Part shown: one piece after another, positions 36,821-40,579 of the stretch
Layout: each line of letters starts with the position of its first letter
Numbering within the stretch: the first letter of the stretch is position 1
Sequence record: OP172784
DNA: 64,000 nt
DNA from: Escherichia phage ECO07P1
Direction: 5' to 3' (one strand)
Notes under the pieces: model-generated
Seen by the model: the letters and a program-made list of their open reading frames with translations, nothing else
Told to the model about the DNA's origin: nothing
The model's database searches: none
Position numbers and translations under genes: made by a program

Positions 36821-36828
36821 TATTTATA
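36821..36828 (-). promoter_or_regulatory. T4 late promoter TATAAATA (- strand) upstream of t
   Basis: Reverse complement of tatttata, overlapping gene 38 stop, about 19 nt upstream of the t ATG. Confidence 0.45.
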
Positions 36829-37375
36829 CGTAATTCCTGAATAAACGCTTATACCAAGGCTTCCATTCTTTTTCAGGCCATTTAGGAAATTCACCACCTA
36901 AATGCTCATGCTTTTCTAAAAGAGCAAAGAACCGTTTAAGGTTTTGATAATAGAATTTTTCCTTTTTATTTGCAACTGAAGCTTCGATCATATTATTCAA
37001 TACTTGGAATTCTTTATATAATTCTTCAATTTTTCTATTACGAATTAAAACGCGTTTATATGTTTCGTCTTCTTTCCAACCATCATCAGTCCATATATCA
37101 AATTCGCCGGGTTCATCAAAAGTTATACCAACCGGGCTTCCTATGTCAGTTATTAAGATTTCTTCTTTATTAAAAGTCCAAGCCCGTTTACCGCGATGGT
37201 CTTCTTCATAAATCCAATCCTGAATACGTTCATCAAATACAACTGCGTATCCTTCTTTAGGTTCTAAAGGTTTTTTAATTGTTGAATGAGCAGGAAGACC
37301 GAGGCCTTTAACCGGTTTGTAATTTTCTTCTTTGTAAAATTCTTTAGTGTCAAAATAATAATGATATATTTTCAT
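36824..37375 (-). CDS. 38: gp38 tail-fibre assembly chaperone (T4-type, 183 aa)
   Basis: Near-identical to remembered T4 gp38 (MKIYHYYFDTKEFYKEENY...). Confidence 0.9.
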   Translation of the reverse strand: MKIYHYYFDTKEFYKEENYKPVKGLGLPAHSTIKKPLEPKEGYAVVFDERIQDWIYEEDHRGKRAWTFNKEEILITDIGSPVGITFDEPGEFDIWTDDGWKEDETYKRVLIRNRKIEELYKEFQVLNNMIEASVANKKEKFYYQNLKRFFALLEKHEHLGGEFPKWPEKEWKPWYKRLFRNYV

Positions 37376-37382
37376 ATTTAGA

Positions 37383-37398
37383 AGGGGCCGAAGCCCCT
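37383..37398 (-). other. CUUCGG-type hairpin between genes 37 and 38
   Basis: aggggc-ttcg-gcccct on the - strand; no T-run. Confidence 0.35.
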
Positions 37399-37402
37399 CT
37401 CC

Positions 37403-40400
37403 TTATGCTAAACGAACGATATAGTTAAAAGCAATGTTTTTAACCGTGTTTTCTGTATTACCTGTACTATTTACAGTGATAGTATGACCATGCGAGCCAA
37501 TTGCTACCGTGTGGGTATGAGCACCGATACCTACAGTATGGGTATGAGCACCAATACCTACTGTGTGAGCATGGTTACCCGTAGCGCTAGTAGTTCCTGA
37601 CCAACTATGGGTGTGGGCACCGTCTGAAGAAGTTTTGGCCATATTCGACGCTGCAGTAGCACCGCTCACGGTTCCAGTGATTTTAGCGTTGCCGTTTGGA
37701 CCTGCACTATTGTATCCATCATAGAATATGCTAGTGGGTATGCCGCCTTGCATCTGAGGGCCTGAACGAGCGTGTTGGTGCGCACCAGCGGAACTAGTAT
37801 TACCACTCACTGTATGGCTATGGTTGCCGGTGGTATTACTGGTCTTAGTACCATAATCAAAGCTTGAAGTCGTTTTGCTACCGTAATCAAAACTTGATGT
37901 GGTTTTAGTACCTAAGTCAGTACTTGAAGCCGATGCACTATGGCTATGAGCCTTAACACCATCTTCTTCTGCGCTCAAAACATCACGACCACTTGGTTTA
38001 CCCTTGATAGTTTGCCCGCGCATATCAGGCAGAGAGCCGGAAGGATACACCGCAGCTAACTTAGGATACAAGCCAACATCAAATGTTTGACCTTCCATTA
38101 TGGCATAACCTTCAGGAGGTGTATCAGTAGGCCAAGGAATCGGAGCTCCAATAGGATAACTTGAAACAATATCAGTTTTAAGTGATTCAATCGTACTGTT
38201 TAAGTTAGCAAAATTACCAGAACCACCAGTAATATTACCATCAGTACCAAGAGTAGCAGCACCGGCAATAATTTTACCAGGTGTGCGGAAGTCACCGGTA
38301 CGACGGAATTCCCAACTTATATCGGTTCCGGTAGTACTAGTACCTTGGTGATAATGGACACGGAAGTCTCCTTGGGCAATTAAGGTACCAATAGAATAAG
38401 TACTATCACCCTTTACATACCGTTGTTTAACAATAGGAATGTATTCAGAAGTAGCAGTACGCTCTATATTCATATAAATTGGAGCTCTTACGTTTACATC
38501 GTTCTGAGATGCAAAGGAACCACAACCCGTTGGGCGAACTCCATCAGAAGCCTCAATATCTATATAAGCATTTTGTCCTAATTGCATTCTAAAGTTGGCA
38601 TTAATGCGAGAGTTACTATTTATAGTAGTTAAAGCATTATTTTGATCTACTATAAAAGAATCTCTTCCTAACCCAACCATGCCATCGTTTAATCCTATTC
38701 TCACAGGTCTCAAAGAGCTGTGAATGTCTCCGCTTTCGCCTTCATTTTGATTGGTTGGAATAATATAGAAGTTGGCTTCTGAACGACGGAAAATAGCGCC
38801 ATATTCGGAATTCCAAATTCTTAATGCATTAGCAGTTCCACCAATTTTTACTTGGCCGGTAATAGAAGAACCACCTTGGACAAACAAACCGTTAGACATA
38901 GTAACATTGCCACCGAAAGAACCTGTACCGGAGGCACTTATATTTCCAAGGCCTATGATATGACCTGTTTCGACAGTTCCGTTAAATTTAAAGTTAACCG
39001 GACCTACCGTTTGACCTGATGCAGGATTAGTACGTTGAGCGTAAAAATAATAACCTTGCCCATCAGCTACTTCAAAAACGGTTTCACGACTACGATCACC
39101 AGATGCGTTAAATGAATTACCCCACACTTTAACTGTAACAGGGCTTTTGTTTTGACCTGAGCGTGTGCCACTATTCCAGTATATGCTTCTAGTACCATCT
39201 ACAGCCGTCGGAGCATTAAATTGGAATCCCTGATTATCAGGTCCATCAATAATTATACCTTTATTAAGACGAAAAGCTAATGTAGAATCAATATTACCTG
39301 TTGCAGCGTTAAAGCTAATACTGTTAGCACCGGTTACTAGTTTAAGAATACCCGGGTTAACTTCCATGCCTTCTTGAGTATTAATATTAGTTTTGCCTTT
39401 ACCACGGAAATAGTGGTTCATTTTACCGCCTGAGTTATAGCCAATATGTGTCTGGCCGTCTCCACCAGTGTTTCCATCAGCTTGTGTTTGAACCGATAAA
39501 AAGGCAACGTTGGTTCCAGGCATAATCCATGTTGTGCCTTGATCTTCTGAGCGTCCAAATAATGCTTTACGTGTACTACGGAAACTGTCAGGAGTAATAG
39601 AAGCAACAGAATATCCACCGCCAACTAGATCAAATACACCGGTTTTTTTGTATGACAAGCCAGTTACAGTGTCACCGAGAACAAGATACTTATCGCCCAT
39701 TACACCGACGTTACCATAATCACTAGACGGGAAATCTGCAGTGAATGTACCTAATGCAAGGCTATTACGCCCAGCCATTCGGCCGTCGTTACGAATACCA
39801 TATTGTTTAGATGATGGAGTATTACCCGTCCACCAAGACATTTCATCTGCTTGGCCAGTCTGAGCTGTACAGATTTCATGCCACATGGTTCCGGCAGCTT
39901 TAGCGCGAACTTTACGAAGATAGTTTATACCGTTTGTTTCACCGGTTCCAGGATAAACATAGTTAACCAAAGATTGAGAATCATATTGCCCAAAGGCTTT
40001 GGCATCGTGAATAACAGTATCAACCGCAATGCGTTTAGTTACTAACGAATCTGATGCTAAAATACGGTTAGCTTGAAATTCACCGCCGTTTATAGAACGG
40101 AAATAGAATTCGCTATTAATAATGCTTCCGGTTCCTTGTCTAACTCTAAGACGTATTTCACCGTCAGTTGTAGTTTGAGGACGAGCATATATAACGCCTC
40201 GTTCAATGCCATCGGCATTTTCAAACCAAAGATGGGCATTGGAAGTATCATTTGAGGCTCTTGTATAAAATGAACCTTGTGTAGATCTGAAAACTTTTGC
40301 AGTTATGCCTTCAGTAGAACCAATAGGTCCATTTACGGTCATTCCACCAGTTTGTACATAATCGCCGTTTAATTTCAAAAGACCATTGATAGTCACATTT

Positions 40401-40579
40401 CCATCAACTTGCCCGCCTTTAGCAAAACCCAGATCAATGATATTTCCTAAATCGTCTTTAGTAAAAATTGTTCTATCTTTTAAGTTTATAGCCAATTCAC
40501 CTTCGGCTAATACTGAAGCAGCAGGACGAGCACCTGCGGTTTTGCTTCTTTTAAATTGTATTTGTTTTAAAGTAGCCAT
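37403..40579 (-). CDS. 37: gp37 long tail fibre distal subunit (receptor-binding), T4-type with His-box tip
   Basis: 1058 aa; C-terminal GAHTHTV His-box repeats and conserved extreme C-terminus [11 protein letters not shown]. Confidence 0.95.
37483..37575 (-). repeat. About three tandem 27-bp coding repeats (His boxes GxHxHTV) in gene 37
   Basis: Near-identical units gtgggtatgagcaccgatacctacagt / atgggtatgagcaccaatacctactgt. Confidence 0.7.
37842..37935 (-). repeat. Tandem ~30-bp coding repeats (TTSSFDYG units) in gene 37
   Basis: Protein shows [22 protein letters not shown]; DNA units accataatcaaagcttgaagt / accgtaatcaaaacttgatgt. Confidence 0.6.

Follow-up and report, generated by a model that had tools for sequence, protein, structure and literature searches.

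The two tandem repeats in the C-terminal needle of the distal tail-fibre protein very probably make up, as matching halves, a single structural module that recurs along the stem of a T4-type gp37 receptor-binding needle. In homologous needles, the number of ten-residue units on the outgoing strand fixes the number of nine-residue HxH units on the returning strand; the repeats are accordingly a single paired module. The feature itself has been described before, and the pairing rule adds modestly to it. Positions refer to the whole 64-kb stretch of DNA that was analysed, hereafter called the window.

Two tandem repeats in a predicted T4-type needle

Both repeats are located in an open reading frame that is 100% identical over 3177 nt to the "long-tail fiber protein p37" of ECO07P3; GenBank record OP172786.1 carries the identical gp37 sequence. 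The C-terminal 278 amino acids of the product matched PDB 2xgf (HMMER/phmmer, E = 1.2e-91; query residues 23–300 on 2xgf_A residues 2–242), which is the crystallised T4 gp37 fragment 785–1026, and the homology spans the whole fragment. A phage tail collar domain (Pfam PF07484, E = 2.6e-11) lies directly upstream of the needle, and the protein also has a match to the Pfam Phage_fiber repeat PF03335. The neighbouring gp38 is identical to T4 gp38 at 175 of 183 positions (96%) and matches PHROG 105, "tail fiber assembly" (E = 4e-43), although a Pfam search with gp38 gave no match. The gene order, 35-36-37-38-t-asiA, is the same as in T4. The 2xgf alignment and the needles fetched for comparison thus confirm the initial annotation of the gene as a T4-type gp37 with repeats in its C-terminal needle, and by homology the repeats can be assigned to the receptor-binding needle of knob, stem and head that is shared by T4-type gp37 and lambda Stf. 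The features of the region are listed below, with the limits of the knob transferred from T4 via the 2xgf alignment and the 14-residue His units defined by module parsing.

36824..37375, minus strand: gp38, T4-type tail-fibre assembly chaperone, 183 aa, directly downstream of gp37
37403..40579, minus strand: gp37, distal subunit of the long tail fibre, T4-type with an integral adhesin, 1058 aa and a stop codon (basis: open reading frame)
37952..38164, minus strand: knob/collar domain, N-terminal part, aa 806–876 (T4 811–881)
37772..37951, minus strand: outgoing (descending) needle-stem strand, aa 877–936, 60 aa versus 50 in T4; three HxH motifs (H878, H920, H934)
37904..37930, minus strand: degenerate first unit ASSTDLGTK, aa 884–892, predicted to be at the same height as the terminal unit GSHGHTITV
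37874..37903, minus strand: ten-residue unit, copy 1, aa 893–902; T4 has a single copy
37844..37873, minus strand: ten-residue unit, copy 2, aa 903–912
37787..37828, minus strand: descending 14-residue His unit, aa 918–931, paired with the ascending 14-residue unit
37634..37771, minus strand: head ("tip") subdomain, predicted to contact the receptor, aa 937–982, 46 aa versus 28 in T4, strongly diverged from T4
37457..37633, minus strand: returning (ascending) needle-stem strand, aa 983–1041, 59 aa versus 50 in T4; five HxH motifs (H989, H1003, H1012, H1021, H1030)
37580..37621, minus strand: ascending 14-residue His unit, aa 987–1000
37472..37579, minus strand: four consecutive nine-residue HxH units (27 residues followed by GSHGHTITV), aa 1001–1036; T4 has three
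37406..37456, minus strand: C-terminal return into the knob, aa 1042–1058, ending in a 15-residue segment; identical to T4 residues 1010–1026

Tandem Repeats Finder reported a 27-bp repeat at 37497–37567 (2.6 copies, 81% matches, score 100) and a 30-bp repeat at 37849–37929 (2.7 copies, 78% matches, score 90), and these were the only arrays scoring at least 60 in the window. The periodic match was 41/54 (period 27) and 39/51 (period 30), whereas 2000 codon shuffles of the gene gave at most 32 and never reached the observed match. The 27-bp repeat encodes GNHAHTVGI (1001–1009), GAHTHTVGI (1010–1018) and GAHTHTVAI (1019–1027), followed by a fourth, more diverged nine-residue unit, GSHGHTITV (1028–1036). 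The initial annotation had described approximately three tandem GAHTHTVGI copies; the array is real and lies where it was placed, but the count is four consecutive nine-residue HxH units. The GenBank record of phage teqhad annotates the 27-bp repeat as a "repeat_region".

The 30-bp repeat encodes two successive ten-residue units preceded by the degenerate ASSTDLGTK, which bears out the proposed duplication of a TTSSFDYG(S/T)K unit, here as a minus-strand array within gp37. The same annotation had placed the repeats in the receptor-binding tip; on the T4 domain limits, both map instead to the stem, with the head between them at approximately 37634–37771. A single head segment is present between H934 and H989, with no second copy.

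The difference from T4 is an exchange of the central cassette

In the T4 needle structure (PDB 2XGF; Bartual et al. 2010, as described in PMC9603124 and PMC6957217), the stem comprises residues 882–931 and 960–1009 and the tip residues 932–959, where the chain turns back. The T4 needle holds seven iron atoms (PMC9603124, PMC6957217, PMC12609058). By homology, T4 and the window share the knob/collar, the HxH-iron stem, the head at which the chain turns back, gp38 and the gene order. The arrangement of the repeats is unlike that of T4, as had been suggested at first reading: alignment of the window protein to T4 gp37 (2xgf) left a ten-residue T4 gap at the TTSSFDYG unit and a nine-residue gap at the GAHTHTVGI unit, so that the window exceeds T4 by one ten-residue unit on the outgoing strand and by one HxH unit, GAHTHTVGI, on the returning strand, for a total of eight HxH motifs compared with seven. 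The head region of the window is also longer by 15 and 3 residues in this alignment. The last 49 residues of the protein, beginning with GAHTHTVAI, are the same as in T4, and the C-terminal strand that returns to the knob is nearly invariant across the family.

At the DNA level, the two phages are 95–100% identical in two stretches, one from approximately 37992 to 37888 and the other from 37542 through the stop codon, but only approximately 55–60% identical across the central cassette at approximately 37543–37857; the knob upstream of approximately 37992 has 65–85% identity to T4. The difference is therefore an exchange of the whole central cassette, consisting of the distal stem and head, and its junctions lie at conserved repeat units. 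A simple deletion or duplication of one unit was ruled out as the origin of the T4 difference because the sequence that separates the units belongs to another allele.

The two repeats change in number together

The relationship between the repeats was examined in 194 unique homologous needles, each parsed from both ends; a simpler rule that equated the head with the widest HxH gap misread GiZh and F2. In 192 of the 194, which are related and mosaic and do not amount to 194 independent tests, n ten-residue units (n = 0–6) go with n+1 nine-residue HxH steps, and in the same 192 the distance from the first HxH motif was 22+10n whenever n+1 nine-residue steps were present. The two outliers, P0235 and P0259, lack the head-proximal HxH and are parsing artefacts; both obey the rule when read by eye. 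The 14-residue His units behave similarly, with equal numbers on the descending and ascending strands (0, 1 or 2) in all 194 needles, and this number, m, varies independently of n. An unpaired change of either repeat was seen in none of the 194 unique needles. The rule was not found stated in the literature searched.

Each of five head families is found on stems of differing length, always with matched arms; P0094 with P0108 and P0203 with P0258 are examples of natural pairs in which one head sits on n = 1 and n = 2 stems. These families, together with the separate variation in m, leave only a handful of paired changes that are arguably independent. Combined with the absence of unpaired changes, the five families indicate that copy number sets stem length independently of the specificity-bearing head. 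The suggestion that repeat number is likely to affect host range is accordingly not supported by these needles.

The repeat copies are diverged and conserved in relatives

A different reading is that the repeats are recent expansions at the receptor-binding surface, produced by slippage or unequal crossover, with a labile copy number that tunes host range in the manner of a contingency locus. The units are indeed tandem and in frame, n ranges from 0 to 6 over the wider family, and duplications of a small gp37 domain are reported to expand the host range of T4 (Tetart et al. 1996, J Mol Biol 258:726). The stem location of both repeats, the single head segment of the window and the absence of any needle with one repeat changed alone argue against this reading, as does the T4 difference, which does not amount to the gain or loss of one unit against an unchanged DNA background.

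The sequences of the copies point the same way. The near-identical DNA units expected of a slippage-prone repeat were not seen: the ten-residue copies share 23/30 nt (77%) and the 27-bp copies 22/27 nt (81%), with longest exact runs of 8 nt in the ten-residue pair and 14 nt between 27-bp units 2 and 3, the latter a point in favour of slippage. The differing codons are mostly synonymous (five synonymous versus one non-synonymous in the ten-residue pair). In the closest relatives, JS09, p000v, ATK48 and BEU50, the copies are positional orthologues, and the DNA of ten-residue copy 2 is identical at 30/30 positions in all four. The two ten-residue copies of VR7 and VR25 are 29/30 identical, which speaks for slippage, so copies do at times interact via recombination or gene conversion.

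Copy-number polymorphism was likewise not found among close relatives. The 40 best megablast phage matches had no length differences, each aligning as one piece of exactly the query length. Needles from T-even phages and lambda were also fetched, a non-random set of 16 picked from matches to the window's own sequence; 15 have the window arrangement, and T4 is the short one. Matches in IMG/VR and a large protein database were mainly E. coli prophage Stf proteins and not T-even, and the T-even needles were therefore taken from a phage collection. Fifteen of the 16, lambda Stf included, have three nine-residue steps, and 13 have a 42-residue first gap and identical stem spacing; in SP18 and BCH953P4 the first gap is 41, one residue off. 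The window-type cassette was matched over at least 80% of its length in 105 phage records versus 24 for the T4-type cassette, the records with 99–100% coverage had equal spans, and the cassette is present in three T-even genera and a Serratia phage.

Neither the term expansion nor the proposed proneness to slippage is supported by these comparisons, and recent slippage is an improbable explanation overall. Judged from the relatives sampled, the allele in the window is old, common and stable; lambda Stf has this state too, as do most of the sequenced T-even phages whose gp37 is T4-type.

Matched arms could also arise if length were a neutral polymorphism hitch-hiking on the exchange of head cassettes among phages and prophages, in which case pairing would reflect a shared cassette and not a structural need. 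The T4/window mosaic junctions lie outside both extra units, so one double crossover moves both arms together, and the spread of the cassette across genera fits such traffic. However, five head families sit on stems of differing length, which means that recombination also occurs between the head and the repeats, yet there is no mismatched needle among the 194; the 14-residue His units are always equal on both arms while varying independently of n; and changing the head-proximal iron-binding residues H929 and H931 of T4 to alanine abolishes plaque formation (PMC9603124, PMC6957217, PMC12609058). We consider neutral hitch-hiking even less probable than slippage. An assembly artefact, with a short tandem repeat mis-collapsed or mis-expanded, has a negligible probability as the origin of the repeat count, since apart from the general tendency of tandem repeats to mis-assemble nothing specific favours it, the arrays are 71–81 bp long with diverged units and well inside single reads, the identical sequence is present in OP172786.1 (from which the window may itself derive), and the architecture recurs in lambda, in another 14 phages that were sequenced independently and in approximately 105 phage records.

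A proposed ladder of paired units in the stem

The preferred reading, that the two repeats are halves of one stem module, can be expressed as a model of the needle. Each chain would run from the knob to the head and back, giving a six-stranded antiparallel stem in which the HxH motifs of the three chains would coordinate iron ions along the stem axis, each ion held octahedrally by six histidines. On the outgoing strand, the order is a 17-residue segment, n ten-residue units, TSNTT, m 14-residue units of the form GxHxHxxSGxxxxA, GxHxH and the head loop; on the returning strand it is m 14-residue His units, n+1 nine-residue units of the form GAHxHTVGI, and then a ten-residue and an 11-residue segment. 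The window has n = 2, m = 1 and eight HxH motifs, and T4 has n = 1, m = 1 and seven iron sites. One further histidine/iron "rung" in the stem would thus consist of a ten-residue unit on the outgoing strand level with a nine-residue HxH unit on the returning strand, and because the two would be level, both would be gained or lost together.

The axial register was estimated from two published T4 contacts, G921–F970 and H929–G964 (PMC9603124, PMC6957217), by linear extrapolation. These contacts give x+y of approximately 1892, which places the ten-residue unit of T4 level with a second ten-residue segment; with the same sum in the window, each ten-residue unit would be level with one GAHTHTV unit, continuing the nine-residue iron ladder. 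With eight HxH motifs, the window needle is predicted to have an eighth iron site and a stem approximately 20% longer than that of T4. An AlphaFold2 monomer prediction for aa 806–1058 from a 32-sequence alignment (mean pLDDT 50.6, pTM 0.19) was too poor to define the register, as expected for an intertwined trimer.

More tentatively, the gp37/Stf needle in general may be a quantised ladder, in which ten-residue units without His are paired with nine-residue HxH units (n = 0–6) and 14-residue units are paired likewise (m = 0–2). If so, the number of iron rungs and, with it, fibre reach would evolve separately from head specificity, and the conserved units would double as recombination junctions for head-cassette swaps. 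It is a matter of speculation that reach might be tuned to the depth of the receptor under LPS, O-antigen or capsule.

The window itself carries little weight, as its sequence is in GenBank (ECO07P3), the structure of the His-box/iron needle has been solved and the eight-motif form is common. T4, the usual alignment reference, is an unusually short variant, and "insertions relative to T4" at this location are therefore not novelties. For host-range engineering of gp37 or Stf, the arms should be kept matched, ten-residue units with nine-residue HxH units and 14-residue units with their 14-residue partners, and the conserved units on either side of the head cassette are suitable places for engineered crossovers. 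The pairing rule also offers a simple check for broken or mis-assembled needle genes.

Comparison with known systems

The mutants described by Tetart and colleagues are said to be laboratory-selected tandem duplications that include the specificity region and are bounded by "His boxes". They and the window have in common the gene region and the use of GxHxH ("His box") motifs as repeated, recombinogenic sequence. Unlike such mutants, the window has one head segment, and the units it has in excess of T4 come in pairs, are of old origin and have become fixed in many phages; a tandem head duplication between His boxes, as reported for the mutants, was not found in the window gp37.

[quoted passage not shown] The Bas63 sequences are distant from the window, and that study does not describe the one-to-one pairing of ten- and nine-residue units.

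A close counterpart outside the T-even phages is the side tail fibre protein Stf of lambda (Ur-lambda). It belongs to a siphovirus, carries a different head family and has an unrelated N-terminal fibre shaft, and many E. coli lambdoid prophages encode a shorter Stf with n = 1, like T4. Lambda Stf is 61% identical to the window protein over 262 aa, with recognisable counterparts of both repeats (segments of 20 and 36 residues), and its C-terminal domain has exactly the module count of the window: n = 2, m = 1 and eight HxH motifs.

Both repeats belong to the stem of the gp37 needle

The repeat-bearing interval is on the minus strand, within the final 180 codons of a 1058-aa ORF (37403-40579) that matches the ECO07P3 "long-tail fiber protein p37" at 100% over all 3177 nt; ECO07P3 is a Tequatrovirus isolated on E. 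fergusonii. Gene order here is 35-36-37-38-t-asiA-arn-motA, the same as in T4, and the next ORF downstream (36824-37375) has 96% identity with the T4 gp38 chaperone. The fibre is therefore T4-type, with the adhesin carried by gp37 itself.

A hairpin with a UUCG loop (GGGGC-UUCG-GCCCC; 37376-37402, minus strand) occupies the space between the two genes: it follows the gp37 stop directly, lies a short way 5' of the gp38 ATG and adjoins a GGAG. Folding gives a minimum free energy of -15.6 kcal/mol (z = -2.6). The hairpin is kept in T4 and VR7, JS09 carries a compensatory change (GGGAC...GUCCC), and a terminator is annotated at the matching position in one GenBank record (NBG1).

Two tandem repeats had been noted in the C-terminal region of gp37, and both were recovered with Tandem Repeats Finder. 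No other array within the 64-kb window was as strong, and the observed periodic match was reached by 0/2000 codon shuffles of the gp37 gene. The 27-bp array carries a "repeat_region" annotation in the teqhad GenBank record.

Repeats and needle domains in gp37 (domain limits transferred from T4)
37849-37929, minus strand: 30-bp repeat, 2.7 copies; encodes two 10-aa units (aa 893-912), with a degenerate ASSTDLGTK ahead of them
37497-37567, minus strand: 27-bp repeat, 2.6 copies; encodes 27 residues of nine-residue units followed by GSHGHTITV (aa 1001-1036)
aa 877-936: outgoing stem strand, with the 10-aa units
37634-37771, minus strand (aa 937-982): receptor-contacting head, between the repeats
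aa 983-1041: returning stem strand, with the 9-aa HxH (di-histidine) units

In T4, each gp37 chain reaches the tip and then turns back; published limits are 811-881 and 1010-1026 for the knob, 882-931 and 960-1009 for the stem, and 932-959 for the tip. The HxH motifs along the needle bind seven iron atoms. The needle itself is a six-stranded barrel (PMC12609058). When these limits were carried onto the window gp37 through alignment to the crystallised T4 fragment (PDB: 2xgf; E = 1.2e-91), both repeats mapped to stem strands with the head between them, contrary to the initial annotation, which placed them in the receptor-binding tip.

The needle differs from that of T4 by an exchanged cassette

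The arrangement does differ from T4, as had been proposed: in the 2xgf alignment, T4 is short by precisely one unit of each repeat (10 aa and 9 aa), and the window has eight HxH motifs versus seven. The segment between the repeats is 18 residues longer in the window. DNA identity to T4 is 95-100% up to approximately 37888, through the first 10-aa unit, approximately 55-60% across 37543-37857, and again 93-100% between 37542 and the stop codon. This profile is mosaic; the difference is therefore an exchange of the central cassette (distal stem and head), with junctions at conserved repeat units, and not a one-unit slip. The divergent block roughly corresponds to the T4 specificity region, given as 907-996 in a later paper that cites Montag et al. 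(1990). Any host-range difference from T4 would be explained more simply by the very different head than by repeat count.

Contacts reported in T4 (G921 with F970, H929 with G964; residue identities checked against the sequence) would set an axial register of x+y ~ 1892, bringing the T4 10-aa unit level with a 10-residue segment of the returning strand. In the window, one GAHTHTV unit would lie level with each 10-aa unit, and the predicted iron sites would carry on at 9-residue steps. From these two contacts, we infer an eighth iron site and a stem approximately 20% longer (60+59 versus 50+50 residues).

Outgoing and returning repeats form one paired module

HxH spacing was parsed in 120 database homologues, 80 viral-contig loci, and a third set comprising 16 phage records fetched singly and 147 further representatives of a 50%-identity library (150 proteins listed, three already in the database set). 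The needle pattern consists of a 17-residue opening segment, n 10-aa units, TSNTT and m 14-aa His units on the outgoing arm; GxHxH with the head loop; m 14-aa His units and n+1 nine-residue HxH units on the returning arm; and a C-terminal end with stretches of 10 and 11 residues. The window has n = 2 and m = 1, and T4 has n = 1 and m = 1. The first-HxH distance equals 22+10n exactly when the nine-residue steps number n+1, for n = 0-6, in 192/194 unique needles; in the two outliers, P0235 and P0259, the head-proximal HxH has been lost, and reading by eye shows that both conform. The number of 14-aa units (0, 1 or 2) is the same on both arms in 194/194. Five head families were each found on stems of differing length, with the arms matched every time; therefore, stem length and head type assort independently, and the arms never do. 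The 10-aa and 9-aa repeats are one paired module.

Four homologues from the representative library and the database mark the extremes of ladder length, all with matched arms: P0129 (n = 4, m = 1, 10 HxH), P0079 (n = 2, m = 2, 10 HxH), P0233 (n = 0, m = 2) and P0224, which combines roughly six irregular 10-11-aa units with six 9-aa steps.

The repeats are old and the cassette is widespread

The initial annotation regarded the repeats as expansions prone to slippage, and neither description is supported by the comparisons. Three nine-residue steps, as in the window, occur in 15/16 of the fetched T-even and lambda needles (first gap 42 residues in thirteen, 41 in SP18 and BCH953P4), and T4 is the sole short n = 1 form. 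Coverage of 80% or more of the cassette length was found in 105 phage records for the window-type cassette and in 24, mostly T4 stocks, for the T4-type. Within the window, the 10-aa copies share 23/30 nt (differing codons: five synonymous, one non-synonymous) and for HxH units 2 and 3 the match is 22/27 nt, with longest exact runs of 8 and 14 nt, respectively. In JS09, p000v, ATK48 and BEU50, copy 2 of the 10-aa unit matches that of the window at 30/30 positions and copy 1 at 27-28/30, versus only 22-24/30 when copy 1 is compared with copy 2. In this group, the duplication is older than the spread of the cassette. The best 40 megablast matches all align in one piece at the same length as the query.

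Interaction between copies is indicated only in VR7 and VR25 (both Gaprivervirus), whose 10-aa copies are 29/30 identical compared with 22-24/30 in most other phages; their 9-aa HxH units are still diverged and the unit count is unchanged. This near-identity suggests local gene conversion.

The cassette, with the same head family, is present in three T-even genera and a Serratia-isolated phage; carriers include Mosigvirus (L083, L085, L087, L089, L094), Gaprivervirus (L090, L092, L096) and Serratia phage PhiZZ30 (L095). The remainder of gp37 is far less similar, with at least 80% whole-gene coverage in only four records besides ECO07P3. This pattern suggests that phages have exchanged the C-terminal cassette horizontally.

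In E. coli database proteins P0053, P0058, P0060, P0063, P0064 and P0217, a needle C terminus follows N-terminal phage modules to which it is unrelated (terminase GpA PF05876, tape-measure PF09718, ClpP-like protease PF00574). In P0217, a fragment of terminase joins the needle in mid-stem. These may be cryptic-prophage deletion fusions or gene-calling artefacts.

Comparison with known systems

The T4 gp37 needle structure has already been described, and the "T4- and lambda-based RBP family" covers more than 200 phages. Variation of di-histidine number with needle length was noted for Bas63 fibres (PMC12609058). No statement of the strict arm-pairing rule was found in the accessible literature; the rule is expected from the hairpin topology and is a modest addition only. 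Tetart and colleagues (in 1996) reportedly expanded T4 host range through duplications in this gp37 region, said to span the specificity segment that His boxes enclose; the window shows a different arrangement. The repeat feature of the window is already known and ordinary, and the Stf fibre of Ur-lambda has exactly the same module count.
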